Source: a virus
Reading direction: 5' to 3' (one strand)
DNA: 61,948 nt
Virus record (IMG/VR): IMGVR_UViG_3300029778_000002
In this document: positions 1 to 61,948 of the stretch, in pieces
How the letters are laid out: each line of letters starts with the position of its first letter
Position numbering within the stretch: position 1 is the first letter of the stretch
Notes under the pieces: generated by a model
Seen by the model: only the letters and a program-made list of their open reading frames with translations
Database searches by the model: none
What the model was told of the DNA's origin: nothing
Position numbers and translations under genes: made by a program

Positions 1-123
1 CATAATTCTCCGTATTTACCTCCCCATCGTAAAGTTTGTAATAGAACGCCAAACTCGTTCTCGATTTTCCGCTTCCTACGCCTCCGCATAAGATGCAGCC
101 GATTTTCATACGGTTGATCGCAT
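1..123. repeat. Terminal direct repeat, copy 1 (identical to 61826..61948)
   Basis: The first 123 nt match the last 123 nt base for base. This is typical of a circular or circularly permuted genome linearised with an overlap. Confidence 0.9.
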
Positions 124-6000: not shown

Positions 6001-7080
6001 GGAATCCAGCATGAAGTTGTAAAAGTCGTTCGATGCACCCAGCATACGGGTCGGAATATAATCATCGTAGAGATGCTTGTTCTGCTCGTATACTTCCTTG
6101 CAGTGCCATGCGATGCCACCCAGCTCAAAGTCCACCTTCGCTACAAGGTCACGGTACTTTTTTGCAGGGATCTTTTCGCCGGTAGGTTCCACATCAATCA
6201 GTCGTCGGATCAGGCCCGATTTTGCATCCGTGATCTTAACGGGCTTGTTGGTGCCCAGAAACATGAAACACTTGAACTGGCTGGAATACTGGCTGCGGAA
6301 CTTCTCGTTCACCAGCATGGTCTCGTGGGATACCAGCGAGTTCAGCCGGGTGTTGTCCTCGATGCGGGAAAGGTCACCGTCGTGCTGGATCGCGATCAGC
6401 GGGTTCGATTTGAACGCCTCCAGCGCAAACGCATTGGACGATGACCCCAGCACCTTGGAGTCGAACACCGACCAGTACCCGTCAAAAAGTTTCTGGACGA
6501 TGTTCAGCACGGTCGATTTGCCGCTGCCGGGTGGACCATAGAGCACGAGGAACTTCTGGATCTTGCGGGAATCGCCGTTCACGATCGCGCCAACCGCCCA
6601 TTCGATCTTCTTTCGCTCCTCGGGAGAATATAAGGTAGTCATCAGCTCGTCGTAGGCGCTGATGTTCCCCTCCTCCAGAAGATACGGCAGCCGCTTCGAC
6701 GCATAGCTTTCCTTCTTGACCGGGGTGTTCGCAAATATCAATGTATCGTCAAGGGTGTGGTAGTTGTCCCGCATCTGACGCTGACAGTATTTGTGCCAGT
6801 TGTCGATCATCCCGCTCTCCGCGTCCCACATGTGCAGAACACGGTAGCTGTCATTGAAGACCTGCTTGTGTTCCTCCGCGTAAATATCCAGCGCGCGGTC
6901 GATCATCTGGAGCGCATCCTGTTCGTCCGTGCTCCAAAGCCCCCGCTCTTCCATCCAGACCGCGTAAAAATCAGAACCCCGGATCATCAGGTCTTTCGAC
7001 TTTTTGATGATGAATTTGGGATAAATTTCGATTGTCCCGCGTTTTCCCGTCCGCGTTGCAATCATCAGGAAATCAATCAT
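3076..7080 (-). CDS. Replicase fusion: SF3/D5-like helicase + AEP primase + family B DNA polymerase (1334 aa)
   Basis: Walker A is VLYGPPGSGKST (about 6511-6540). AEP motifs are VIDFD and SGAGIHLHY (about 5460-5560). PolB ExoI is FFDVEVF, motif A is LDVASLHPHS (about 4141-4175), motif B is KIAINSVYG and motif C is IKTDS (about 3781-3810). Confidence 0.85.
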   Translation of the reverse strand: MIDFLMIATRTGKRGTIEIYPKFIIKKSKDLMIRGSDFYAVWMEERGLWSTDEQDALQMIDRALDIYAEEHKQVFNDSYRVLHMWDAESGMIDNWHKYCQRQMRDNYHTLDDTLIFANTPVKKESYASKRLPYLLEEGNISAYDELMTTLYSPEERKKIEWAVGAIVNGDSRKIQKFLVLYGPPGSGKSTVLNIVQKLFDGYWSVFDSKVLGSSSNAFALEAFKSNPLIAIQHDGDLSRIEDNTRLNSLVSHETMLVNEKFRSQYSSQFKCFMFLGTNKPVKITDAKSGLIRRLIDVEPTGEKIPAKKYRDLVAKVDFELGGIAWHCKEVYEQNKHLYDDYIPTRMLGASNDFYNFMLDSFYIFKKEDGVSLKRAWAMYNTYNDEAKVAYPYSRRAFREELMNYFEEYKERAETVNGERVRSYYSGFKAEKFKEFLDEPVKAEEPTAEPETSWIEFKEQHSLFNDICKDCPAQYATDDGIPMRKWENVESKLAELDASRLHYVKVPENHIVIDFDIPGPDGKKSFERNLEAASKWPQTYAELSKSGAGIHLHYIYTGDATKLSRIYDENIEVKVFTGKSSLRRKLSKCNDIPVATISSGLPLKGETKMVDTKQIQDERHLRILIKKALAKEISPYTKPSIDFIAHIMDEAYEGNVVYNVDDMRNAILGFAASSTNQADTCLKIVAKMHFKSKDDIQREAPVGEETPLIFFDVEVFPNLLLVNWKFAKQEPVHRMVNPTPEEIESLTKYRLVGFNNRKYDNHILWARMIGMSVEQIYALSNRIINEHTGFFGEAYNLSYTDIYDFSSKKQSLKKFEIELGIHHQELGLPWDQPVPKSLWDKVAEYCDNDVIATETLFYSKKRQADFVAREILADLAGMTVNDTTNSLTTRIIFGKEKHPRLVYTDLATGKSDAIVEVEPDILTDCNIINAFPGYEWAKGEDGKYHNMFRGTDLGMGGYVYAEPGMYTNVALLDVASLHPHSAVAMNYFGEYTKHFNDLMDVRIYVKHGEYEKAKGLFGGKLAKYLDDPQQAKALAQALKIAINSVYGLTSASFDNPFRNPKNANNIVALRGALFMRTLQDEVQQRGFKVAHIKTDSIKIPDATPEIIAYCMDFAKKYGYTFEHEATYERMCLVNNAVYIAKYMTADRCEALYGYTPGDCKDEGGEWTATGTQFQVPYVFKTLFSKEKIEFTDLCETKTVSKGAIYLDKNEDLPEGEHNYIFVGRVGQFCPIMPGKGGALLLREAGLTDTGERKYASVTGAKDYRWLESEAVYQLQMQEDIDKRYFNREVDEAVEEISKYGDFNWFVGDDGIAPWTAPDLPWSDAQEEAARNFDVR

Positions 7081-7112
7081 TTGTAACTGACTTCCTCCTT
7101 TCTCCGAGGTTT

Positions 7113-7367
7113 TTATACGTCTTTCTCTTTCTGGAGGGTCATCTGGGCCAGCGTTGCCTCTGCCTCGCGGGCACGCTCATCGGCTTCCTTGCGCTGCTTT
7201 TCTGCCTCGTTCACCATCTTGCAGGAAACGAAGCCAAACCACAGCAGACCAGCGATGAGAATGTTCTTCCGGATGCACTTGCCCTTCATGCGGCGGATGG
7301 TGTGATTGGCCACCTCCAGTGCAGCCTTGCTGTTGCTCAGGTCGATCAAAATATCAGTCAGTTCCAT
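7113..7367 (-). CDS. Hypothetical membrane/coiled-coil protein (84 aa)
   Basis: GGAGGA SD 8 nt before ATG 7367. One hydrophobic helix followed by a charged tail. Confidence 0.5.
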   Translation of the reverse strand: MELTDILIDLSNSKAALEVANHTIRRMKGKCIRKNILIAGLLWFGFVSCKMVNEAEKQRKEADERAREAEATLAQMTLQKEKDV

Positions 7368-7523
7368 TGTCAATTTTCCTCCAGTAATTCGGGTCAGCCA
7401 GAATCAGCCGGCCAATGTTATTCTCGTCTCGACACGCCGTGATTCGCATCATCACATGGGAATCGTCGAGTATCTTTTCAACAAATCCTTCCATAGGGAT
7501 GCAGATTTTTGATTCATATGTCA

Positions 7524-8075
7524 TCAAAACTCATTCTCATTCAACCAGCTCATCAACTGGTACCAAATATCAATGGTACGCATATCGATGGACGTACGGG
7601 TAATCGTAAAGAGACCGCCAGCCCCGTTCGGCTGATAGTCCCGATCCATAAACCGGGCCAGGATCGGTTCCGCGCGCTCTTCGCTGAAACGGGTGTCGTC
7701 CATGGCAGCCAGACCCAGGCTGACGACCATGCTCCAGAACCACTGCCCCACACGGTTGCCCATGCTGCGGTCTTCCATGATGTGTTCCTCGATGCGAATC
7801 GCCAGCGCCACCATCATCTCCAGCATAGAGCAGGGTACGCCCTGAAATACCGCATCGATCTTCCCGTACGGAATATTATTCTCCGATGCAAAGCGGTACC
7901 GCAGGTTGATGCCGTCCGTTGCCCGGCAGACATCCATTTCGCACGCCGGAATATAATCCCGGTTAAAAAGATACATCAATAAGCGGTGAAAGCTGAGGTT
8001 CCGGGGCTCCCATTCGCCGCAGACGATCTTGTAGAGCCAGTCATAATACTGCTCCGTCTCCCTCATAAAGTTCAT
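7524..8075 (-). CDS. Hypothetical protein (183 aa)
   Basis: ATGA start/stop overlap with the upstream gene. Long clean ORF. Confidence 0.55.
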   Translation of the reverse strand: MNFMRETEQYYDWLYKIVCGEWEPRNLSFHRLLMYLFNRDYIPACEMDVCRATDGINLRYRFASENNIPYGKIDAVFQGVPCSMLEMMVALAIRIEEHIMEDRSMGNRVGQWFWSMVVSLGLAAMDDTRFSEERAEPILARFMDRDYQPNGAGGLFTITRTSIDMRTIDIWYQLMSWLNENEF

Positions 8076-8883: not shown

Positions 8884-9870
8884 TCAGATCTTGTCGATGA
8901 TGGGCCCGTCACAGTTGAACCGCAGCATCACCGAGCGCTCCCCGCCGTTGATAAAGCTGTTCAGTGCCTCGTCGCCCTCGACGTAGTTGGTCACACCAAA
9001 ATCCACGTGGTTCTGTCGGGTCGGGTCGTTCGGGTCATAGATCCAGCCAACGATCTGCCCTTCCGGGGTCTTCATGGTCACACCGCCGTGCGTTCCGATG
9101 CTGCTCAGAACGTCGTTCAGGAACAGGTGCCCCTGGATGCGCAGCCGCTTGTTTGCCGCCTGCTCCATCAGGAAAAGGTAGTTGCGGTTCAGCTGGTTGT
9201 CAGCCTGCCAGGTGTCCACAGTCTCGTCAAAGATGCAGGTATAGGGGCTGGTGTGCTGCATGGCGATGTCCTTGTATTCCTTGATGGTCTCCTCCACGCC
9301 CTGCTCGTTGGTGCTCTTGCTCTCGAGCTCCACAGCCTTGATGTTGTGCTCCAGCTCCTCCTGCACACGGCTGCCAAAGCGGTCGGATACACGGCTCTTG
9401 TATTCCTCAAAGGCCTTGTCCAGAGCAATATAAGCCGCGGTAAGGCTCGCATTGCGCTTGGACATAATGTGGTGGGAACCGAACATGCAGCCCAGAGATA
9501 CTGCACCCAGGGTGACCGCAGGCGCATACACCTTTGCCAGCTTCAGGCCGGTCTGGACGTAAGTGGTCGTAATATCGCTCTTGTAATCCTTCTCGGTGTA
9601 GGTCTCGCCCTCGCTCAGCTGGACCGTGCCATCCTCGATCTGCTTCTTGGCCGTGTGGATGCTCTCAACCTGAGCATAGTGCTCGGTCAGAATATCCTGT
9701 GCCTTGATGGTCGCCTTGCAGGCCAGCACGGTAGCAGTCACACCACCAATGGCAGCGCCAACGATCATAATGGTGGGGCTTGCCTTCTTCAGCTTGTAGC
9801 CGCACTTGGATGCAGCACGGGTCATCGTTTCCACGATTTCGGTTTTGTCGATCTTTTTCAGGAACTTCAT
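8884..9870 (-). CDS. Membrane-anchored protein, paralog family member 1 (328 aa)
   Basis: Start at ATG 9870 (AAAGGAT-TGATATTT-ATG). It shares an N-terminal TM, an RNASLTAAY...YK..V block and a GW..D C-terminal region with 11003..11788 and 12310..13128. Confidence 0.65.
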   Translation of the reverse strand: MKFLKKIDKTEIVETMTRAASKCGYKLKKASPTIMIVGAAIGGVTATVLACKATIKAQDILTEHYAQVESIHTAKKQIEDGTVQLSEGETYTEKDYKSDITTTYVQTGLKLAKVYAPAVTLGAVSLGCMFGSHHIMSKRNASLTAAYIALDKAFEEYKSRVSDRFGSRVQEELEHNIKAVELESKSTNEQGVEETIKEYKDIAMQHTSPYTCIFDETVDTWQADNQLNRNYLFLMEQAANKRLRIQGHLFLNDVLSSIGTHGGVTMKTPEGQIVGWIYDPNDPTRQNHVDFGVTNYVEGDEALNSFINGGERSVMLRFNCDGPIIDKI

Positions 9871-9893
9871 AAATATCAATCCTTTCTTATTGT

Positions 9894-10511
9894 TCAGCGC
9901 AGCGGTACAGGGCGAGGCAGCATCAGGCGATATCCGCCCGGGATGCCCTTGATGAACGCCCCGTCAAGGTTGTACCAGCCGTAATTGTAATCGGTGCTCT
10001 CGTTGGAAACGCCCATCAGATCCCACAGGTCGCCCACAGAAACCTGACCGTACTGGCGAATCGCATCATACATCTGGGAAAGCGTGTCGTCTGCATCCCC
10101 GCGGAACTCAAAGTCCAGGTTCTGCAAGCTGCGTCCTACGGCCCGGTTCGGATTCCCCTGCCGGTTGCCGGAGCCTCCCTGATAGTAGGTGTCATAGCTG
10201 TTCCGCTGGGTGCGGGAGCCGGAGTAGTTGCTCGAAGAGCCGCGGGAACGGTCCTCGCCAAACAGTGCAATGCTGACCGCAGAGTTAAAAATACTCCACA
10301 GACCGTTCTTCAGCATGGGCAGCAGATAGTCCACCACGATGCGGTTCTTCACGGTCTTGAGGTCCTCGGCCAGGAACTCGTTGGCGATCTTCTGGATATC
10401 GTTCTGCTCCTTGAGGGTCACTTTTCCTTTAACGACCTTCTGGAACTTCTTCTGGGGCTCTGCGACAGGCTGCTGTCCGATGCTGCTCTTCGGCATGTTT
10501 ACTTGTGCCAT
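9894..10511 (-). CDS. Hypothetical protein (205 aa)
   Basis: AAAGGA SD. Has a Gly/Ser/Asn-rich central linker. No confident domain. Confidence 0.55.
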   Translation of the reverse strand: MAQVNMPKSSIGQQPVAEPQKKFQKVVKGKVTLKEQNDIQKIANEFLAEDLKTVKNRIVVDYLLPMLKNGLWSIFNSAVSIALFGEDRSRGSSSNYSGSRTQRNSYDTYYQGGSGNRQGNPNRAVGRSLQNLDFEFRGDADDTLSQMYDAIRQYGQVSVGDLWDLMGVSNESTDYNYGWYNLDGAFIKGIPGGYRLMLPRPVPLR

Positions 10512-10526
10512 GGTGTCATCCTTTCA

Positions 10527-10568
10527 AAAAACAAAAAAGTAAGAGCCGCAGATTTCTCCACGGCTCTC
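10527..10568 (-). terminator. Rho-independent terminator (conserved family)
   Basis: The minus strand reads GAGAGCCGTGGAGAAATCTGCGGCTCTTAC plus a T-run. G-U pairs extend the stem only in the minus-strand RNA. Confidence 0.7.
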
Positions 10569-10581
10569 GCCTTACCTAACA

Positions 10582-10914
10582 TTACTTCTCTTCAGAAGTT
10601 TCCTCAACGTCCTCGTCAGGAACGTCCACCTGTGCAGAATCGACATTCTCGATCTTCCAGGGCTTCTGCCAGACGATCTTCTTCTTGGACTTCGGCTTCT
10701 CCTCGTCCTTGCTCTGCTTCTTGGCCTTGTGCTTCCGGTACAGTCCGTATCCCACGGCTGCAACCAGACCCACAGCACCAACAGCGAGACCAATGCCCGA
10801 GCCGTTGCTCGAAGTTTCCTCGTTATCGATCATCTGAACATTCTCCTCCGGAACGACCTCAACAGAAGTCTCGTTCTCCATAGTAGTTTCGTTCATGTTC
10901 ATCATTTCATCCAT
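10582..10914 (-). CDS. Small single-pass membrane protein (110 aa)
   Basis: Start moved to ATG 10914 (AAGAAAGAGG SD). The track ATG at 10968 lies inside the promoter-like motif. TM helix GIGLAVGAVGLVAAVGYGL. Confidence 0.6.
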   Translation of the reverse strand: MDEMMNMNETTMENETSVEVVPEENVQMIDNEETSSNGSGIGLAVGAVGLVAAVGYGLYRKHKAKKQSKDEEKPKSKKKIVWQKPWKIENVDSAQVDVPDEDVEETSEEK

Positions 10915-10964
10915 TTTTGTTACCTCTTTCTTAAATATAAATTTATAATGTCGGAGTATTACCT

Positions 10965-10990
10965 CCATAAAGGAAGCTGAATTTTTCGCG
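10965..10990 (-). promoter_or_regulatory. 26-nt promoter-like motif, copy 1
   Basis: Minus strand CGCGAAAAATTCAGCTTCCTTTATGG, 51 nt upstream of ATG 10914. Confidence 0.6.
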
Positions 10991-11002
10991 CCGGGTCAAA
11001 TA

Positions 11003-11788
11003 TCAATAGCCGCCCAGCCACTTCGGAGGCGTGTGATACTCCAGCGTCAGGCAGGGCATTCCATCCTCGTCCAGCCGGGACGCATAGAAAATATCAACGT
11101 TAAGCCCCGAATCCGTGTCCCAACCCAGCAGGTCACCGTTGACGCAGTGGTCGATGCCCAGATAGTCGAACAGATCATTCTCGCTCACCCGGAAGTCACT
11201 GAGCAGCTGTTTGTTGACCCCATTGACGGCCTTTTCGATCATGGCCTTGGTCGTCCAGAAGTAGGTGTTGGTCAGGCTTTCCCAGCACTTCACCCGCTGG
11301 TCGTAGGAAACATCGGTTGTGGCAAGGTTCTTGGCAGGCTGGATGGTTGCCGGTTCGGGGCACTTGGCCATCTTTTCCAGTGCAATGGTCTCCCGGATCT
11401 CCTGTTCCTTCTCGGGGCCGATGGCCTCCAGCACCTTGTCCTGATAGGTCTTGAGCGCGCTCTCAGAAAGGGTGCACGCCGCGGCCAGTGCAGCATTCCG
11501 CCGCTCGTCCACATGGACTGCACCAATGACGCAGCCCGCAGACAGCACCATGCTCAGCGCAGTCGGCACGTACACCGGGCCCGCCGTCTTGACAATGGTC
11601 TTCACGTCCAGCTTTTCCACGCCCAGCTCCTGCTTTTTCTCGTCCAGCAGGATCATGGCCTTGGGGGTGGCCGTCACAGCGAAATAGACCGCCGTGATGC
11701 TTCCCGTGATCGCCAGACCACCCAGGATCTTGGATGCGTTCTTTCCTGCGCTCCTGCGCACTGCCTTTGCAAATGTTTTCAGGTTCAT
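11003..11788 (-). CDS. Membrane-anchored protein, paralog family member 2 (261 aa)
   Basis: GGAGGT SD. N-terminal TM, an RRNAALAAACTLSESALKTYQDKV block and a GWDTDSGLNVD C-terminal region. Confidence 0.65.
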   Translation of the reverse strand: MNLKTFAKAVRRSAGKNASKILGGLAITGSITAVYFAVTATPKAMILLDEKKQELGVEKLDVKTIVKTAGPVYVPTALSMVLSAGCVIGAVHVDERRNAALAAACTLSESALKTYQDKVLEAIGPEKEQEIRETIALEKMAKCPEPATIQPAKNLATTDVSYDQRVKCWESLTNTYFWTTKAMIEKAVNGVNKQLLSDFRVSENDLFDYLGIDHCVNGDLLGWDTDSGLNVDIFYASRLDEDGMPCLTLEYHTPPKWLGGY

Positions 11789-11804
11789 CTTCGTACCTCC
11801 AAAA

Positions 11805-11844
11805 ATTTATAAAAAGAAAGAGCCTACGATTTCTCGTAAGCTCT
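11805..11844 (-). terminator. Rho-independent terminator (conserved family)
   Basis: Minus strand GAGCTTACGAGAAATCGTAGGCTC followed by TTTCTTTTTAT. Confidence 0.7.
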
Positions 11845-11850
11845 CGCCTT

Positions 11851-12075
11851 TCAGATATGTCCGTGCTGCTTCAAATTCTCGAAGCGAATTTCTGTTTCAC
11901 GCTGATCATCGCGCTCCAGTTGGATCTGGTAACGGATATACTCGTACAGTCTGGTCGGCTGCTTCTTCAGATAGTGATACAGCCCTGTAAAGCCGTATCC
12001 CACTGAACGTGCAACTGCCTTCAGTACGCGTACCATTGCCTTGTCCATCTTTGCATAATAGTCGTGATCGTACAT
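11851..12075 (-). CDS. Hypothetical small protein (74 aa)
   Basis: Start at ATG 12075 in the context AAAGGAGAT-TGATATTT-ATG. Confidence 0.55.
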   Translation of the reverse strand: MYDHDYYAKMDKAMVRVLKAVARSVGYGFTGLYHYLKKQPTRLYEYIRYQIQLERDDQRETEIRFENLKQHGHI

Positions 12076-12115
12076 AAATATCAATCTCCTTTGTTTGTCA
12101 GTTTGGATATCTCTT

Positions 12116-12141
12116 CCATAAGGGAGACTGTATTTTTCGCG
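12116..12141 (-). promoter_or_regulatory. 26-nt promoter-like motif, copy 2
   Basis: Minus strand CGCGAAAAATACAGTCTCCCTTATGG, 41 nt upstream of ATG 12075. Confidence 0.6.
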
Positions 12142-12142
12142 T

Positions 12143-12307
12143 TTACCGGTTCTTTTCTGCAAGCTGGCGCTGAACTTCCTCTCGCACCATGTCCTGCATT
12201 TCCTCTTCGCTGCGCTGCTCCTCGATCAGGTCATGGCCAAAGCTCAGGATTGCGCTTGCAGCCATCATGGCCACGGATGCAACTTTCCACCAATTGATCT
12301 TCTTCAT
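12143..12307 (-). CDS. Small membrane protein (54 aa, not in ORF track)
   Basis: GGAGA SD 6 nt before ATG 12307. Encodes MKKINWWKVASVAMMAASAILSF... and stops 1 nt before motif copy 2. Confidence 0.4.
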   Translation of the reverse strand: MKKINWWKVASVAMMAASAILSFGHDLIEEQRSEEEMQDMVREEVQRQLAEKNR

Positions 12308-12309
12308 AT

Positions 12310-13128
12310 TCATTCTCCTTTTTTCTCGCAGTAATCCGCATAGGGATCGTAGTTGATATAATTCTCGATGGGTGGCTGGAAAGCATCCACGTAGTAGACT
12401 TCAAGGCCGTCGTCTGTTGTCTGCTTGTAATACCGGAAGTCGATCCAATAATATTCCCATTCATTTGCCAGATAATCCGCCGACCAACCAGTTGTGTCCC
12501 CTTCCGGCAGATAATCCAGTCCGAGGTAATTATAAAGGTTGTTCATGGATGCCTCGCCATCCAGAGCAAAATCGCGGTTCATATGGTAGAATGCATCTGT
12601 CAATTCCACCTCTGTAGCATGGAAATATCTTTTTGAGATAGGCTCGTAGCAGAGTAGTTTTTCCTCTGCCATCTTGTCACGAACTTCAGGCAGCTTTTCT
12701 TCGCTGATCTGCTCCTGAATTTCTGCTTCTTTTTCCAGCCCGATGTTCTCAATCACCTTCTGCCGGTAGGTCTGATAGGTCTTTCCCAGTGCCATGTACG
12801 CCGCGGTCAGACTCGCGATCTGCTTTTTGTTCAGCGCGTTGGAGCCCAGGATGCAGGCAATGGTACCGCCGCCAAGAATCGCAGCCGGAACGTATGCTTT
12901 CCAGCACATCAGAACAATTTGTTTCTTTGTCGGAGGCCCTTCTGTCACGCCGAACTCGTCTTCGTTGAACTTTGTCAGCTCCTTGTCAACTTCAAGTATG
13001 TGCTTTGCCTTCGTGGTTGCCCGCCCGGTTTCAATGGCCGTTGCTACCACGCCTACAGATGCCGCCACCGCCAGAATGGTTCCGCCGTGTTTGCGCAAGA
13101 ATTTCGCGCATGTTTTCGTCAGTTTCAT
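12310..13128 (-). CDS. Membrane-anchored protein, paralog family member 3 (272 aa)
   Basis: GGAGGT SD. N-terminal TM, an NKKQIASLTAAYMALGKTYQTYRQKV block and a GWSADY C-terminal region. Confidence 0.65.
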   Translation of the reverse strand: MKLTKTCAKFLRKHGGTILAVAASVGVVATAIETGRATTKAKHILEVDKELTKFNEDEFGVTEGPPTKKQIVLMCWKAYVPAAILGGGTIACILGSNALNKKQIASLTAAYMALGKTYQTYRQKVIENIGLEKEAEIQEQISEEKLPEVRDKMAEEKLLCYEPISKRYFHATEVELTDAFYHMNRDFALDGEASMNNLYNYLGLDYLPEGDTTGWSADYLANEWEYYWIDFRYYKQTTDDGLEVYYVDAFQPPIENYINYDPYADYCEKKGE

Positions 13129-13146
13129 TGTTCAACCTCCATTTTG

Positions 13147-13181
13147 AAAAATAAAAGAGCCCACGATTTCTCGTAAGCTCT
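13147..13181 (-). terminator. Rho-independent terminator (conserved family)
   Basis: Minus strand GAGAGCTTACGAGAAATCGTGGGCTCTTTTATTTTT. Confidence 0.7.
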
Positions 13182-13189
13182 CGATTTGG

Positions 13190-13417
13190 TTAGCGCTTCA
13201 AATACTTTTCAGCCTGCTTCGTTCTCAGGAATTCATACAGCTTCCGTTCCCAATCCGGACTCTGGTCCTTCATAGCGTTATCGAGCGCATCTGCCGCCAA
13301 ATCTTCATTGCGCATCATAAGTTGTCTCCACATGATAGCAACGGAGTCAACGCAGAACAATTCGGTAATGCCATAAAACGCCACTGCGCCAAAAGCAACT
13401 TTCACCAATGTCTTCAT
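13190..13417 (-). CDS. Small membrane protein (75 aa)
   Basis: Start moved to ATG 13417 (GGAGGT SD). TM helix LVKVAFGAVAFYGITELF. Confidence 0.55.
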   Translation of the reverse strand: MKTLVKVAFGAVAFYGITELFCVDSVAIMWRQLMMRNEDLAADALDNAMKDQSPDWERKLYEFLRTKQAEKYLKR

Positions 13418-13457
13418 AATTTCGTACCTCCAAAATATAATTCTGAGACTAACCATC

Positions 13458-13483
13458 TCATAAAGCACCATGAAAATTTCGCG
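13458..13483 (-). promoter_or_regulatory. 26-nt promoter-like motif, copy 3
   Basis: Minus strand CGCGAAATTTTCATGGTGCTTTATGA, 41 nt upstream of ATG 13417. Followed by a conserved 5' leader shared with copies 13 and 14. Confidence 0.6.
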
Positions 13484-13708
13484 TCAGATCACATCAACCT
13501 TTTTGAGAATATCCATCAGCTGCGCCTTGGTCATCTCTGCATCCACTACAAGATGGATCTTCAACTTCTGCTCTTTTTCGCTCCAGTTCGCCTGAACCTC
13601 GCCCAGCTGTACCTCTGTACCGGGTAACTGCTTTTTCAGTATCTTATTGATGACCTGCGAGATGATGCGGCGCAGAAAACTTGACCGGATCAGCATAATG
13701 TCCTCCAT
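13484..13708 (-). CDS. Hypothetical small protein (74 aa)
   Basis: GGAGGT SD 9 nt before ATG 13708. Lies directly downstream of the tRNA-like gene. Confidence 0.5.
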   Translation of the reverse strand: MEDIMLIRSSFLRRIISQVINKILKKQLPGTEVQLGEVQANWSEKEQKLKIHLVVDAEMTKAQLMDILKKVDVI

Positions 13709-13738
13709 AATCGTTCAACCTCCAAAAATAAAAATGAA

Positions 13739-13808
13739 AAAAGAGAATGGGCCTCGAACCCATAACCTCCACAATGAAGTGGCGCTCTACCATTTGAGCT
13801 ATCTCCTC
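13739..13808 (-). tRNA. tRNA-like gene with a non-canonical anticodon arm (identity undetermined)
   Basis: Minus strand GAGGAGA-TA-GCTC-AAATGGTA-GAGC-G-CCAC-TTCATT-GTGG-AGGTT-ATGGG-TTCGAGG-CCCAT-TCTCTTT. The acceptor, D and T arms are standard. The anticodon stem closes a 6-nt loop (8 nt if the last pair opens). Confidence 0.5.
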
Positions 13809-13833
13809 CATAAGGGAACATGAATTTTTCGCG
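13808..13833 (-). promoter_or_regulatory. 26-nt promoter-like motif, copy 4 (drives the tRNA-like gene)
   Basis: Minus strand CGCGAAAAATTCATGTTCCCTTATGG. Its last G is nucleotide 1 of the tRNA-like acceptor stem. Confidence 0.6.
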
Positions 13834-13864
13834 GTTTGATAAAAAGATAAGAGGGCGTGATCTT

Positions 13865-14050
13865 TCAGATTTCGTCCTCTTCCAGATTGCTCTCTTCGTC
13901 TTTTGTATCAACCCAATTGTTCAGTTTGCTCATCTGATAATACGCCCATCCGCACAATGCCAAGCTAATGCTCGCACATACGGTGCAGTATTTGAAATAA
14001 GCCCCATAAGTAATAGGTTTGTTCATAAAGTTCTTAATAGCTTTCATCAT
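13865..14050 (-). CDS. Small membrane protein (61 aa)
   Basis: Start moved to ATG 14050 (AAAGGAGA SD). TM helix CASISLALCGWAYY. Confidence 0.5.
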   Translation of the reverse strand: MMKAIKNFMNKPITYGAYFKYCTVCASISLALCGWAYYQMSKLNNWVDTKDEESNLEEDEI

Positions 14051-14085
14051 AGTAATTTCTCCTTTCAATGCAAGCCCTCTTACCT

Positions 14086-14111
14086 CCATAATAGAAGCTG
14101 TATTTTTCGCG
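14086..14111 (-). promoter_or_regulatory. 26-nt promoter-like motif, copy 5
   Basis: Minus strand CGCGAAAAATACAGCTTCTATTATGG, 36 nt upstream of ATG 14050 and 1 nt after the preceding terminator. Confidence 0.6.
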
Positions 14112-14112
14112 C

Positions 14113-14149
14113 CGAAAAAGAAAGAGCCCACGCTTTCGCATCAGCTCTT
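14113..14149 (-). terminator. Rho-independent terminator
   Basis: Minus strand GAGCTGATGCGAAAGCGTGGGCTC followed by TTTCTTTTT. Confidence 0.65.
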
Positions 14150-14199
14150 CTCCGGGACGGCCCAACTCAAGTTGTGTTCAACCGGTCTATCGTCAATTA

Positions 14200-14337
14200 T
14201 CAGTCTTTCGACGGCCGGAATGCACGACACAACAGCCATACAATAACGGTTACAATCGCCATTGCAACTGCTGTCATGATCATCTGCCCAACCGTAATCG
14301 AATAATTCCAAATTTTCTTAAAAATAGATTCGTTCAT
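14200..14337 (-). CDS. Small membrane protein (45 aa, not in ORF track)
   Basis: AAAGGAGAATGTAAT-ATG at 14337. Encodes MNESIFKKIWNYSITVGQMIMTAVAMAIVTVIVWLLCRAFRPSKD. Confidence 0.4.
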   Translation of the reverse strand: MNESIFKKIWNYSITVGQMIMTAVAMAIVTVIVWLLCRAFRPSKD

Positions 14338-14367
14338 ATTACATTCTCCTTTTCTTGGGCCTTTGTC

Positions 14368-14393
14368 CCATAAAGCACGGAGAATTTTTCGCG
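14368..14393 (-). promoter_or_regulatory. 26-nt promoter-like motif, copy 6
   Basis: Minus strand CGCGAAAAATTCTCCGTGCTTTATGG, 31 nt upstream of ATG 14337. Confidence 0.6.
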
Positions 14394-14394
14394 C

Positions 14395-14757
14395 CTAGAT
14401 CAAACTCCGGTCAAACACGGTCTCCCAGCGTTCTTTCTTGAGGGGCTTCATGCGCAGTGCCCACATGATCTGTCGTACGGTCACAGTCGGGTACTCGCCC
14501 TTTGCGTTTTTCTTCTTGGCGTGACTGTCAAAATACTGCCGGAACCCTTCATGCAGATAGATCTTGTCGGTCAACCATGGGTCAATGGCGCTCCAGTAAG
14601 TAGCCTTGGTTTTCTCGTTGTAACGCTGCTGGATCACGCACAGGCCTTTCCCCTGTTCCCGGTAGAGCGTGCAGACACGGTACACCGGGTGATTGCACCG
14701 GTAAACGCTCCCGTAGTAGCTCGTCCACTCTTTTGGCGGTATGTCGTGATATCTCAT
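14395..14757 (-). CDS. Hypothetical protein (120 aa)
   Basis: Clean ORF from ATG 14757 (MRYHDIPPKEW...). It has no SD and no motif copy because it follows a terminator directly, so the start is uncertain. Confidence 0.45.
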   Translation of the reverse strand: MRYHDIPPKEWTSYYGSVYRCNHPVYRVCTLYREQGKGLCVIQQRYNEKTKATYWSAIDPWLTDKIYLHEGFRQYFDSHAKKKNAKGEYPTVTVRQIMWALRMKPLKKERWETVFDRSLI

Positions 14758-17420: not shown

Positions 17421-18383
17421 TTATCTCATGTTTTTCAGAGGACTGTGCCTGCGGTACAGCTCTGCCAGATCCTCCTGTGTCAGGTCAAGATAAGCCTGTT
17501 CTGTCACGGTCACACTACTGTGCCCCAGAATCCGGCTCAGGGTGTAAATATCTCCGCCATTCATCAGGAACCGTTTTGCAAAGTTGTTCCGGAACACATG
17601 CGGATGAACGTTCTTCAAACCAACTCTCTTAGCGTACTTTCGGACGTTGGCTTCAAAATTATTTGCTTGCAGCGGTTTCCCCTCGTTTGTACAAAATAAA
17701 AAGTCGCTGTCACGGTAGCGGTCTTTGTATTTGCTCCACTTCCGGATCTGCCCTGCCATCTTCTCCGAAAAGAATACCGATCTGCCCCGTTTTCCTTTCG
17801 TGTTTTTCGCTGGCAGCCAGATGAACCGTTTTGCCAGATTTATGTCATTGACTTGGATCAGCAGGCATTCGCTGATTCTCATACCGGTGTCCATAAGGAG
17901 CTGAATAATCACAAAGTCCCTGTACTCACTGAATTTGGAAATATCCAGCGCTCTCAACAGCCGTTTGAAGTCGTCATCTGAGATAAATTCCAGCGGCTTG
18001 TGCTCTGTCTTCGTAAAGTCGCCACGCTTGATCGGCGATTTCCGAAGAATATCCTCATCGACGCACCAGTTAAAAAACACTCTGAGATTCCGCAGGTAGT
18101 TGTTGATCGTCACATCTGAGACTTGTTTTCCGTAGTCAGGACGGTTTTCCGGATAATTTCTGGCATCCTGATTCGTCACAGCGGTATACTTTCCCCGCCT
18201 CCGAATTTCCTGAATGTATCCCTGAATCGTCAGATGCGTAACATTTTCCGTGCGCTCAATTCCAATTTTGTACAAATGTTGCATGAACAACCTCAACGTC
18301 TGCTCATAACTGCCAATCGTCTTCATACTCAGTCCCTTTAACTCGCATGCCTCCAGAAACATTTCTACATCTTTTTCCACCAC
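17421..18383 (-). CDS. int: Tyrosine integrase (XerC/D-phage integrase family, 320 aa)
   Basis: C-terminal catalytic signature HPHVFRNNFAKRFL...LGHSSVTVTEQAYL. Start placed at GTG 18383, 6 nt after GGAGG; the track TTG at 18455 has no SD. Confidence 0.9.
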   Translation of the reverse strand: MVEKDVEMFLEACELKGLSMKTIGSYEQTLRLFMQHLYKIGIERTENVTHLTIQGYIQEIRRRGKYTAVTNQDARNYPENRPDYGKQVSDVTINNYLRNLRVFFNWCVDEDILRKSPIKRGDFTKTEHKPLEFISDDDFKRLLRALDISKFSEYRDFVIIQLLMDTGMRISECLLIQVNDINLAKRFIWLPAKNTKGKRGRSVFFSEKMAGQIRKWSKYKDRYRDSDFLFCTNEGKPLQANNFEANVRKYAKRVGLKNVHPHVFRNNFAKRFLMNGGDIYTLSRILGHSSVTVTEQAYLDLTQEDLAELYRRHSPLKNMR

Positions 18384-18455
18384 AAAAAACCTCCGGAATC
18401 CATTCGGCTCCACACCCAATAAATCCCGGAGATTTATCGCCCTATCAACAATCAA

Positions 18456-18500
18456 TTTATCGCTATGGAATCCATAATTCTATAATTCCATAGCGATAAA
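18456..18500. repeat. Perfect 16-bp inverted repeat with 13-bp spacer upstream of int
   Basis: TTTATCGCTATGGAAT (18456-18471) is the exact reverse complement of ATTCCATAGCGATAAA (18485-18500). The spacer CCATAATTCTATA contains a duplicated ATAATTC. Confidence 0.85.
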
Positions 18501-18564: not shown

Positions 18565-18777
18565 TCACACTGCCCTCTGCCGCTTATCCAGCCGCATCTT
18601 ATCAGCAATCATTGCAATGAACTCCGAATTGGTGGGCTTGCCCCGCAGGTTGTGGATGGTATAGCCGAAGTAGCTGTTGAGGGTATCCACATCGCCCCGG
18701 TCCCACGCCACCTCAATGGCGTGGCGGATGGCCCGCTCCACGCGGCTGGCGGTGGTGCCGTTTTTATGATAGGAAAT
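18565..18777 (-). pseudogene. spo0A: Start-less 3' fragment of spo0A (last 70 codons plus stop); attP-linked gene-end replacement candidate
   Basis: The minus-strand frame reads [70 protein letters not shown]. This matches the canonical Spo0A C-terminal DNA-binding region. An in-frame TAA lies immediately upstream, with no start codon or SD. Confidence 0.7.
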
Positions 18778-18976
18778 TTACCTAATTGTTGTGAGGTATT
18801 CTCCGTTCTTCACAGGTATAGGCGCAAGTTGTTTATCGTGCCCTTATTATACCAGATGCCGGGGCATATATCCATCGACAAATCGCTCAAATCCGACAAC
18901 TCAAAAAAGAAAAGTCCATGAAAATATCAATGCCCAGCGGCACCATATTTTTCCATAGACTTTTCCTCCATTTTGA

Positions 18977-19240
18977 TTACTTCCTGGCGTTGTTTTCCGC
19001 CCTCAGCCGTGCAAACAGTTCGTCTGCCTCGATGGCCTCCTTGGTGAAGGAGTTGTTCTTCCACCAGTTGATAATGGCCACCACAACGGTGATGAGGGTG
19101 CTGACCAGTTGCTGGAGCTGCTCGTTGTCGATGGGCAGCGGGCTCTTGTTGAACGAAGCCAGCAGACTGTTCAGCAGCGCCACGATCAGGCAGATGGTTC
19201 TCGCCCAGGTCGCAGCACTTGCATTGGTGTATTTCTCCAT
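18977..19240 (-). CDS. Holin (phiLC3-type, 87 aa)
   Basis: AGGAGG SD. Two hydrophobic helices and the WWKNNSFT signature. Last gene of the late block. Confidence 0.75.
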   Translation of the reverse strand: MEKYTNASAATWARTICLIVALLNSLLASFNKSPLPIDNEQLQQLVSTLITVVVAIINWWKNNSFTKEAIEADELFARLRAENNARK

Positions 19241-60775: not shown

Positions 60776-61948
60776 AAAATTTCCTCTCATTAAACGCTTT
60801 CTTCGAGTTCAGGGCTCTCGAAATTGCCAGATCAATACCACTCCTACTCTTCAGATGGTAGTAGTACAGATCCTTGTACGGTGTATTCAGCCGGTCAATG
60901 CGCCCCGAGGCCTGCTCCATGATCTTATATGAGTAGTTCTGGCTGTAAAATATAATGGTGTCCGTCTTGATGCAGTTCCAGCCTTCAGCACCGGCATTGT
61001 ACTGCACCAGATACACCCACCTGTCGCCTTCAGGAAGCGGCTGATGCTTGTGCCCGTTCCATTGTGCAACTTCGGTGTCCTTGCCATAGTCCAGACCCAT
61101 CAGAATATCAAGCTCATAATCAAAATTATAGAAGATAATGACCCTAGGTCTGCCTTTGCAAATATCCAGCACTTTTTCTTGTCGGCTTGCATCAGCGTTC
61201 ACCAACTTCCGCAGCAGATAGCAGAACTCGCTGGCGGTCTCGATTGGTTTGTTCTCCCAGAGGTTCCACCGGTTCTTGCAGATTGAAAGATACTTCACCT
61301 TGTCATACTCCACAAATACATTCTCATGGTGCGATACAGTCGGCCGCTCGAAGTCCATGTCAACCAGAATCCGTTCCCGCAACCGTACCAAGCGCTGGGT
61401 ATTCAGATACCGGTCGATCTTCGGGTACTTCGTGCAGAATTGGCTGTATACCACATGCTGGTTGTTGAAGTCCGTTCTGTTTCGGTAGAACCCATTGGCG
61501 ATGAACACCGGGATATAATCCGTCCAGCAGTCCCCGGGGGTGGCGCTGAGCAATATCCACTCGTTATTTTGCGTAATTTTGTAGAAAGATTTCACCCATG
61601 CGCCCTTTCCAACGACTCGCTGCTCGTCAAATATAAAGAACGCATTCTTCACGCCAACGTACTTTCCGATATTGTTCCAGGAATCCACCACGACCTTGTG
61701 CTCGTAAATATCATGCTCTGGATCTGTAGACATATAGAAATGGGCCAGTTCTTCGTCCCACTCTCCCGTATCCCGTTTCCGGGCAGTCGTGATGATGTAA
61801 AGATCCGGGGGCTCTGTCATGCGTACATAATTCTCCGTATTTACCTCCCCATCGTAAAGTTTGTAATAGAACGCCAAACTCGTTCTCGATTTTCCGCTTC
61901 CTACGCCTCCGCATAAGATGCAGCCGATTTTCATACGGTTGATCGCAT
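60762..61948 (-). CDS. SF2 (DEAD/SNF2-like) helicase, 3' part; the 5' end continues at 124..157 across the circular junction
   Basis: Walker A GGVGSGKS, FDEQ (motif II), LSATP (motif III) and QASGRIDR (motif VI). The full-length protein is about 406 aa when the genome is circularised. Confidence 0.85.
   Translation of the reverse strand, partial: AINRMKIGCILCGGVGSGKSRTSLAFYYKLYDGEVNTENYVRMTEPPDLYIITTARKRDTGEWDEELAHFYMSTDPEHDIYEHKVVVDSWNNIGKYVGVKNAFFIFDEQRVVGKGAWVKSFYKITQNNEWILLSATPGDCWTDYIPVFIANGFYRNRTDFNNQHVVYSQFCTKYPKIDRYLNTQRLVRLRERILVDMDFERPTVSHHENVFVEYDKVKYLSICKNRWNLWENKPIETASEFCYLLRKLVNADASRQEKVLDICKGRPRVIIFYNFDYELDILMGLDYGKDTEVAQWNGHKHQPLPEGDRWVYLVQYNAGAEGWNCIKTDTIIFYSQNYSYKIMEQASGRIDRLNTPYKDLYYYHLKSRSGIDLAISRALNSKKAFNERKFYGAG
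61826..61948. repeat. Terminal direct repeat, copy 2 (identical to 1..123)
   Basis: See copy 1. Confidence 0.9.

Follow-up and report, generated by a model that had tools for sequence, protein, structure and literature searches.

A start-less 3' end of spo0A as the probable host-homologous part of attP in a Faecalibacterium phage

The Phage Genome and the spo0A Fragment

The window analyzed here is the whole 61,948-nucleotide stretch of viral DNA in IMG/VR record IMGVR_UViG_3300029778_000002. Its bases 1-123 are identical to bases 61826-61948, which leaves 61,825 bp of unique sequence, and because of this terminal overlap the window is read as a circular or terminally redundant genome showing the attP form of the phage. 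Nearly every long open reading frame (ORF) of the window is on the minus strand. The closest named phage is Faecalibacterium phage FP_oengus, which matches 26% of the structural region at 82% nucleotide identity and has a related holin. The window is assigned to a temperate, Oengus-like Faecalibacterium siphovirus with a circularly assembled genome of 61.8 kb. The features that define the locus are the following.

1..123 (= 61826-61948), no strand: terminal overlap of a circularly assembled or terminally redundant genome
16803..17234, minus strand: 143-aa ORF adjoining the integrase gene (int), without a Pfam match; marker for finding lysogens
17421..18383, minus strand: tyrosine integrase, 320 aa, GTG start with GGAGG 6 nt upstream; PF00589 (E=3e-35) and PF02899
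18565..18765, minus strand: attP homology block, a start-less copy of the spo0A 3' end; delimited by alignment of attP, attL and attR and by 13 empty attB sites
18780-18778, minus strand: in-frame stop codon TAA ahead of the spo0A fragment, closing its frame
18977..19240, minus strand: SPP1-type holin, the last late gene and the right-end marker of the prophage in lysogens; PF04688 (E=1e-25)

Translation of positions 18565-18849 on the minus strand gives a start-less frame of 70 codons (18565-18777) directly behind the in-frame TAA. The original prediction, made from the letters of the window, described this 70-residue frame as a match to the C-terminus of Spo0A and placed it between the holin and the integrase genes. 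The translation and a match to the Pfam family PF08769 (Spo0A_C, E=2.3e-23) agree with the first statement, and the Pfam matches of the two neighboring genes agree with the second. The similarity is far above chance. It covers only positions 48-103 of the 104 positions of the profile, so that the effector domain lacks its first half and the receiver domain is missing altogether. The fragment likewise aligns with residues 59-118 of the 120-residue crystallized Spo0A C-domains 1LQ1 and 1FC3 (E=1e-24), the first 58 residues of which are absent. The block at 18565..18765 corresponds to the last 66 codons and the stop codon of Faecalibacterium spo0A (residues 187-252 of 252), and the 12 nt that separate the TAA from position 18765 are specific to the phage and do not belong to spo0A. 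The same junction of holin, 70-codon fragment and integrase recurs in four more IMG/VR contigs (L161, L166, L172 and L189).

The fragment had also been described as lacking a start codon and a Shine-Dalgarno sequence behind the TAA. The TAA is present and no Shine-Dalgarno sequence was seen when the bases ahead of GTG 18741 were read by eye, but this GTG is itself an in-frame start-type codon, the only one in the fragment. It is the conserved Val codon of the motif SRVERAIRH. ORF finders list a 58-aa ORF that begins at GTG 18741, and gene callers have called this ORF, which carries the Spo0A_C Pfam match, in public contigs. With half a domain and no Shine-Dalgarno sequence seen at its sole GTG, the fragment does not have the makeup of a stand-alone Spo0A effector gene. 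An ORF that joins a receiver domain to the effector domain is not found in the window, where the in-frame TAA lies upstream, and is present only after integration.

The integrase features a SAM-like N-terminal domain and a catalytic domain, is inferred to be catalytically competent, and starts 182 bp downstream of the stop codon of the fragment. Its most likely start is GTG 18383, which gives the 320-aa protein of the public gene calls; TTG 18455 is a less likely start. Elsewhere, in a stretch of lower GC content in the early region, ARAGORN places a tRNA-like gene at 13738-13809 (minus strand), whose anticodon call has two bases, "ca". The early region also holds three tandem paralogues of DUF6353 at about 8884-13128 of the window (minus strand) and at 11107-14432 of the lysogen locus L059; the DUF6353 assignment comes from Pfam matches on lysogen gene calls.

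Occupied and Empty Integration Sites

Lysogens were looked up in public assemblies with the exact 143-aa int-proximal protein and the exact holin as queries. The public assembly collection lists the holin in 11,407 blocks and the 143-aa protein in 2,336. All ten contigs with the 143-aa protein among the matches listed (0.2-2.8 Mb) have one common layout at the left end of the prophage. The order of the genes is Peptidase_M18, MerR, polysaccharide deacetylase, Peptidase_S55, a 252-aa protein with Response_reg and Spo0A_C domains, the integrase (319-320 aa), the 143-aa protein and the early genes of the phage. Peptidase_S55 is the SpoIVB peptidase family, and its gene is directly upstream of spo0A in the lysogen contigs. 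In each of these ten listed contigs spo0A is an uninterrupted 252-aa ORF. At the right end, contigs with the exact holin feature the holin followed by a start-less Spo0A_C remnant (L052, L053 and L056-L058) and then by host or other non-phage genes. Scaffold_12 of SAYO22-1_SAMEA14101501 contains both junctions, whose boundaries are 60,093 bp apart, a distance that fits the 61,825 bp of unique sequence in the window.

A three-way alignment revealed that on the holin side attP and attR are the same as far as position 18766. From position 18765 on, attP is near-identical to attL across the fragment, the hairpin described below and the integrase, and the two are 100% identical from about 18450. 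Upstream of 18765, attL consists of the unrelated 5' part of spo0A (...YPEIAKK/NGTTASR..., where the slash marks the boundary), and the block 18765-18565 is common to attP, attL and attR. In 11 attL and 5 attR sequences the 5' limit of the similarity and the junction of prophage and host are at the same base. This sharp boundary falls inside the crossover zone that had been predicted at 18760-18790. The attL and attR copies differ from each other at about ten positions within the 200-bp block. When diagnostic SNPs were compared in 5 attP, 11 attL and 5 attR sequences and the closest attB, no switch point was visible because the copies have polymorphisms common to all classes. The exact crossover position would lie within the fragment.

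Most Faecalibacterium species representatives have no integrase behind spo0A. At these empty sites the similarity to the window is limited to 18765-18565 and ends at about the stop codon. In the empty site of F. hattorii (L084) and in that of L072, rpmE (L31) and ABC-transporter genes are found within about 25-60 bp of spo0A, and the same genes form the right-hand flank of the prophage in lysogens. The attB, attP, attL and attR configurations are therefore all present for one system. The search of bacterial genomes for attL and attR junctions, which had been proposed as the check on the prediction, located them inside spo0A; together with the attB sites and the independent attP contigs they bear out the prediction that spo0A is the integration target and receives a substitute 3' end from the phage.

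Proposed Integration Mechanism and Conservation of Spo0A

The fragment is very probably the host-homologous part of attP, and not a regulator gene of the phage, and the phage integrates in spo0A. According to the proposed mechanism, the adjacent tyrosine integrase would recombine attP with host spo0A inside the last 66 codons of the gene, which include a highly conserved 15-residue box. The phage would bring a copy that runs from the crossover to the stop codon, so that spo0A stays full-length in the lysogen, with a 5' part of at least 186 codons from the host and a 3' part from the phage, followed by the phage hairpin and then by int. The original 3' end of the host gene would be moved by about 60 kb to a position behind the holin, where it is start-less and would decay. 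On the alignments above, we are highly confident that 18565..18765 contains the crossover site and acts as the replacement 3' end of spo0A in lysogens.

The rebuilt Spo0A shares 98% identity with the protein of an uncultured Faecalibacterium, 94-96% with those of F. tardum, F. langellae and F. hattorii, and 91% with the one from F. prausnitzii UT1. Comparison of the first 63 codons of the phage copy with 13 empty Faecalibacterium sites revealed 11-25 synonymous differences, a synonymous divergence of 6-15% from the host copies. There are no nonsynonymous differences in 8 of the 13 sites and only one in each of the other 5. The DNA for the recognition helix that the phage carries encodes the native helix. 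The tails differ in part: the native protein mostly ends in KRQRVG and the phage copy in KRQRAV, and an AV ending is likewise found in F. langellae and in the closest host species (L069). Since the copies are near-identical, the Spo0A of a lysogen would be the same as the native protein, or the same up to the last two residues. The pattern of differences indicates selection to keep spo0A intact, and the amino-acid sequence of the fragment is probably perfect because it is translated within spo0A in lysogens. The synonymous divergence of the phage copy would therefore mean that intact Spo0A matters to Faecalibacterium.

These comparisons do not support a further part of the original prediction, that a Spo0A with a phage-specified recognition-helix region and C-terminal tail re-tunes or hijacks the sporulation decision. 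The copies are identical or one residue apart at the amino-acid level, and the AV tail is distinct from that of some hosts only and not from that of L069, the closest one. A functional change of Spo0A by the phage copy was ruled out on these grounds. Faecalibacterium is regarded as non-sporulating. The Faecalibacterium host nevertheless keeps the Peptidase_S55 (SpoIVB-type) gene directly upstream of spo0A as well as the spoIIIAA-AE operon (flanks of L049-L068), and strong purifying selection acts on its spo0A.

The fragment might alternatively be an expressed auxiliary gene of the phage, whose product, a signal-independent, truncated Spo0A peptide of 58 aa (from GTG 18741) that binds DNA, would manipulate the sporulation or stationary-phase regulation of the host during infection. 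Gene callers annotate the 58-aa ORF as Spo0A_C, a promoter-like site is located about 80 nt upstream, and purifying selection on the amino-acid sequence is strong. Elsewhere, phages do have genuine stand-alone Spo0A_C genes, and "truncated spo0A" homologs from viromes have been read in this way (PMC10294663). However, the purifying selection is fully explained by translation inside the rebuilt spo0A of the lysogen, and the 5' edge of similarity is the prophage-host junction in all 16 attL and attR sequences. The GTG is merely the conserved Val codon, with no Shine-Dalgarno sequence seen by eye, and a peptide that starts there would have only half of the effector domain, whose first 58 residues are missing. 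An auxiliary gene is thus very improbable. Since spo0A is rebuilt with the phage 3' end in lysogens, the fragment is better seen as part of attP than as an independent gene.

Candidate Recombination and Expression Signals

The att region features several candidate sites for recombination and expression.

18432-18440, 18455-18463 and 18493-18500: three copies of GCGATAAA around the hairpin
18456..18500, minus strand: perfect 16-bp inverted repeat (hairpin), supplied by the phage, between the stop codon of the spo0A copy and int
18703..18724, minus strand: predicted core-type candidate, the imperfect palindrome CCACGCCA-ttgagg-TGGCGTGG, an inverted repeat that encodes HAIEVAW

18846..18874, minus strand: promoter-like site TGGATA-17 nt-TG-TATAAT on the holin side, facing the att site and int; 10/12 matches, extended -10

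For the core-type candidate at 18703..18724, one remnant in a distant relative (L012) starts at the corresponding ATGGGG. The copies of GCGATAAA may mark arm-type Int sites. The hairpin has a predicted RNA fold of -40.9 kcal/mol (z=-4.8) and is missing downstream of spo0A in the empty sites. In the attL and attR copies it has two substitutions at which pairing is kept as G-U on the minus strand. A possible role of the hairpin is that of a terminator or insulator for the rebuilt spo0A transcript.

A second, weaker promoter-like site at 18795-18766 is also on the holin side and is likewise directed at the fragment and int. The promoter scan found no promoter-like site between the fragment and int. 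In the attR contigs the site at 18846..18874 remains with the holin side. Integration would part the holin-side promoter-like sites from int and leave int behind spo0A, and the site at 18846..18874 is predicted to drive int only in the circular form. After integration int directly follows spo0A, and the scan assigned it no promoter-like site, so that its expression, and perhaps excision, could depend on read-through from spo0A. If true, read-through would tie int, and perhaps excision, to the stationary-phase or sporulation decision of the host.

A Family of Integrases Anchored at spo0A

A scan with the window integrase against one genome per GTDB species returned 29 loci with integrases of 47-67% identity. 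These loci are from Faecalibacterium, Subdoligranulum, many metagenome-assembled genomes (MAGs) of Clostridia, and one isolate of the Bacillales, Ureibacillus aquaedulcis BA0131 (L028). In F. tardum CLA-AA-H175 (L074) an integrase of 69% identity is likewise found behind spo0A. Among the 25 loci with enough upstream sequence, 24 feature a full-length spo0A frame (262-307 aa) that ends about 200 bp before the integrase; at the lone exception (L007, 52% identity) no spo0A was found upstream of the related integrase. Seven loci have a second, start-less spo0A remnant 4.5-7 kb downstream, with 80-93% DNA identity to the first copy. The arrangement identifies these seven as probable small integrated elements with both junctions visible. 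The remnants start at three different positions (KYNTT..., AWGRG... and YT(V/I)SAAKGKP...), and either the crossover varies by subgroup or the remnants are eroded.

The small elements are found in Clostridium and Clostridiaceae MAGs (L009-L013, L015 and L026) and have spo0A and the integrase on one side and a remnant of 32-74 codons on the other. Too small for full phages, they may be decayed prophages, satellites or integrative mobilizable elements. The copy types seem to be swapped between L009 and L010, a pattern that points to tandem or serial events. The scan points to a whole integrase family anchored at spo0A across Clostridia and in at least one Bacillales genome. It is rather doubtful that one integrase family uses spo0A as a hot spot throughout the Firmicutes, with effects that go beyond neutral docking.

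The spread of the family bears on another explanation of the fragment, namely that it is passenger host DNA picked up by imprecise excision (as in specialized transduction), that it plays no part in integration and that the att core is elsewhere. Gene-end copies at attP have probably arisen in evolution through captures by imprecise excision, and the polymorphisms that attP, attL and attR have in common suggest ongoing homologous exchange with hosts. The architecture is kept, however, next to integrases of just 47-67% identity in Clostridia and a Bacillales genome, and the lysogen junctions are exactly at the 5' edge of the fragment. The phage copy is also old and maintained, and not a recent accident, as its synonymous divergence implies. 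Passenger DNA is accordingly a still less probable explanation than an auxiliary gene. The least probable, with next to no weight, is an assembly artefact or contamination, in which a spo0A-flanked prophage was falsely circularized or phage and host DNA were joined. The prophage is flanked by direct repeats of 200-350 bp, which could in principle give a false circular path, and several "Bacteriophage sp." records of INPHARED that match Spo0A contain entire spoIVB-spo0A regions of the host. Against this reading, the attP junction recurs in the four other IMG/VR contigs, the many positions at which the attL and attR copies differ make a false attP assembly across the repeats unlikely, and the junctions in megabase-scale contigs establish spo0A integration even if the circle were false. 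The preferred reading is that the fragment is the part of attP that is homologous to the host.

Relation to Known Systems

The 3' end of the E. coli gene icd is the integration site of the lambdoid phage 21 and of the defective prophage e14. The system described here resembles them in that a tyrosine integrase is encoded next to attP, attP features an alternative 3' end of a protein-coding target, the ORF of the lysogen is intact and the 3' end of the host is displaced. The elements that characterize the icd type were found here: an integrase adjacent to a start-less 3' end that runs to the stop codon, and a full-length ORF before int in lysogens. A displaced end and the matching flanks of empty sites were also found, the displaced copies resembling scars of earlier phages. 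The system is unlike phage 21 and e14 in its target, spo0A, and in its host, an anaerobic Gram-positive bacterium of the gut, and as far as tested its integrase is of an unrelated lineage. It also differs in that the replacement end, apart from the final two residues in some hosts, is identical in amino acids to the native end in 8 of the 13 sites and one residue apart in the other 5.

The integrases of P4, P22 and L5 are phage or island integrases that target tRNA genes. As in those systems, a highly conserved gene segment serves as the anchor, the element brings along the part of the gene between the crossover and the 3' end, and tandem scars remain when the site is used repeatedly. In contrast to those systems, the target here is protein-coding and the anchor is the DNA for the recognition helix of Spo0A.

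Sporulation genes are known to contain intervening elements, such as skin in sigK, SPbeta in spsM and the yin element in yabG (PMC5025042, PMC10747680). These are likewise prophages or prophage-like elements inside a gene of the sporulation pathway of Firmicutes. They split the gene, which is restored only by developmentally timed excision, whereas the spo0A ORF is uninterrupted in all lysogens listed and the recombinase here is a tyrosine recombinase.

FP_oengus has a tyrosine integrase and was reported by Cornuault et al. in 2018 as very prevalent in human gut samples (PMC5883640). That paper mentions neither spo0A nor sporulation and the FP_oengus record has no Spo0A_C match, so FP_oengus was ruled out as an already described spo0A integrant. 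The att/int modules of FP_oengus and of the window differ. No description of spo0A as a phage attachment site was found in the literature searched, which did not extend to most subscription journals. The mechanism, an attP that carries the 3' end of its target, is of a known kind, and it is the target spo0A, used by an integrase family that is widespread in gut Firmicutes, that was not found described. The analysis identifies the integration site of an extremely common lineage of Faecalibacterium phages of the human gut.

Spo0A_C Matches in Viral Sequence Collections

Two studies have considered Spo0A_C on mobile DNA. Schwartz et al. (mBio, 2023) reported 29 virome homologs of spo0A without a receiver domain and read them as signal-independent phage regulators (PMC10294663), and Jiang et al. 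(PLoS One, 2019) reported that PF08769 is enriched in mobile elements of gut Firmicutes and read it as cargo (PMC6907783). Neither paper mentions att sites, and the former does not discuss integration. The fragment in the window resembles the homologs of both studies in being an ORF that matches Spo0A_C, without a receiver domain, on a gut phage genome. Since the 58-aa ORF is called and has a Pfam match, screens of viromes for Spo0A_C would count it. Unlike the regulators or cargo described in those studies, it would be a half-domain piece of an att site.

A scan of IMG/VR returned 311 contigs with a relative of the fragment, and the best 80 of the 311 were classified. About 31 of these best 80 are short, start-less att-type frames of 52-104 codons, 13 of which are within 500 bp of a contig end and 10 of which have this integrase family next to them. 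The window fragment belongs to this class. About 16 of the best 80 are full-length host spo0A genes at prophage edges, and about 33 are frames of 126-180 codons in contig interiors. Five of the interior type that were scanned against Pfam (L250, L234, L241, L247 and L267) have the complete Spo0A_C domain, from positions 1-3 to positions 102-104 of 104; in L250 a 132-aa frame covers positions 3-102. The stand-alone frames (L250-L270, L234, L236, L241, L246-L248 and L267, near locus 2600-2790) have no adjoining integrase of this family. These interior frames look like genuine phage genes for the Spo0A effector alone, separate from the att fragments.

Spo0A records in INPHARED were rejected as independent phage examples, because 6 of the 8 that were inspected are whole spoIVB-spo0A host regions; the other 2 are diverged stand-alone Spo0A_C-like frames. 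Six INPHARED records (MT835737.1, MT835715.1, MT835504.1, MT835781.1, MT835718.1 and MT836727.1; L149-L153 and L156) are human-faeces contigs labeled "UNVERIFIED Bacteriophage sp." with a complete spo0A in frames of 255-292 codons. Most have an ORF of about 375-540 aa upstream of spo0A and none has an adjacent phage integrase. They look like bacterial DNA in a phage collection.

Published counts of "truncated phage spo0A" probably mix att fragments with genuine stand-alone Spo0A_C genes. As serial integrations leave scars beside spo0A, a sizeable share of the published truncated genes may be att fragments or host genes at prophage edges. Viral matches to Spo0A_C therefore need to be sorted into att fragments, edge host genes and stand-alone genes ahead of ecological claims. 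The finding is useful and corrective for the annotation of viromes and for the biology of Faecalibacterium phages; the mechanism itself is unsurprising.

Scars, Exchanged Modules and Altered Prophages

The right junctions of the prophage contain traces of other phages. In all five right junctions examined the displaced spo0A copy has the phage-type AV tail and is followed by a phage-type hairpin, and a pristine native spo0A 3' end was seen in none of the five. In four of the five, a diverged remnant of the integrase N-terminus (60-67 aa) comes next, followed by a PDDEXK_2 gene. The integrase remnant (L052, L056, L058 and L053; locus about 6840-7960) is about 65-70% identical to the integrase of the window. 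The remnants are read as an older, decayed integration, consistent with repeated use of spo0A in this lineage. Since the five attR sites carry phage-type scars, the sites would have been occupied earlier. Some of the right-junction contigs have NUDIX, MFS and AI-2E transporter genes ahead of rpmE.

Prophages with the same holin are also found at a different locus with a different end module (L049, L050, L051, L054 and L055; locus about 6275). Their holin is identical to that of the window and their lysis and tail genes are 92-97% identical. The similarity ends at position 18966 of the window, 11 bp past the stop codon of the holin, and after a gap of 640 bp it is followed by apbA, ligA and the spoIIIA operon. 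No tRNA gene was found at this second-site junction. Because an identical holin is found at a second locus, the att/int module seems to be a swappable cassette, and the backbone of the phage would use a second site.

The complete 2.79-Mb genome CP100125.1 (GCA_024167885.1; L062 and L053) has both spo0A junctions at a distance of only about 17.7 kb from each other. Between them are conjugation-type genes and genes for a relaxase and a large serine recombinase. From this gene content, the prophage of CP100125.1 appears to be largely replaced or invaded by another mobile element.
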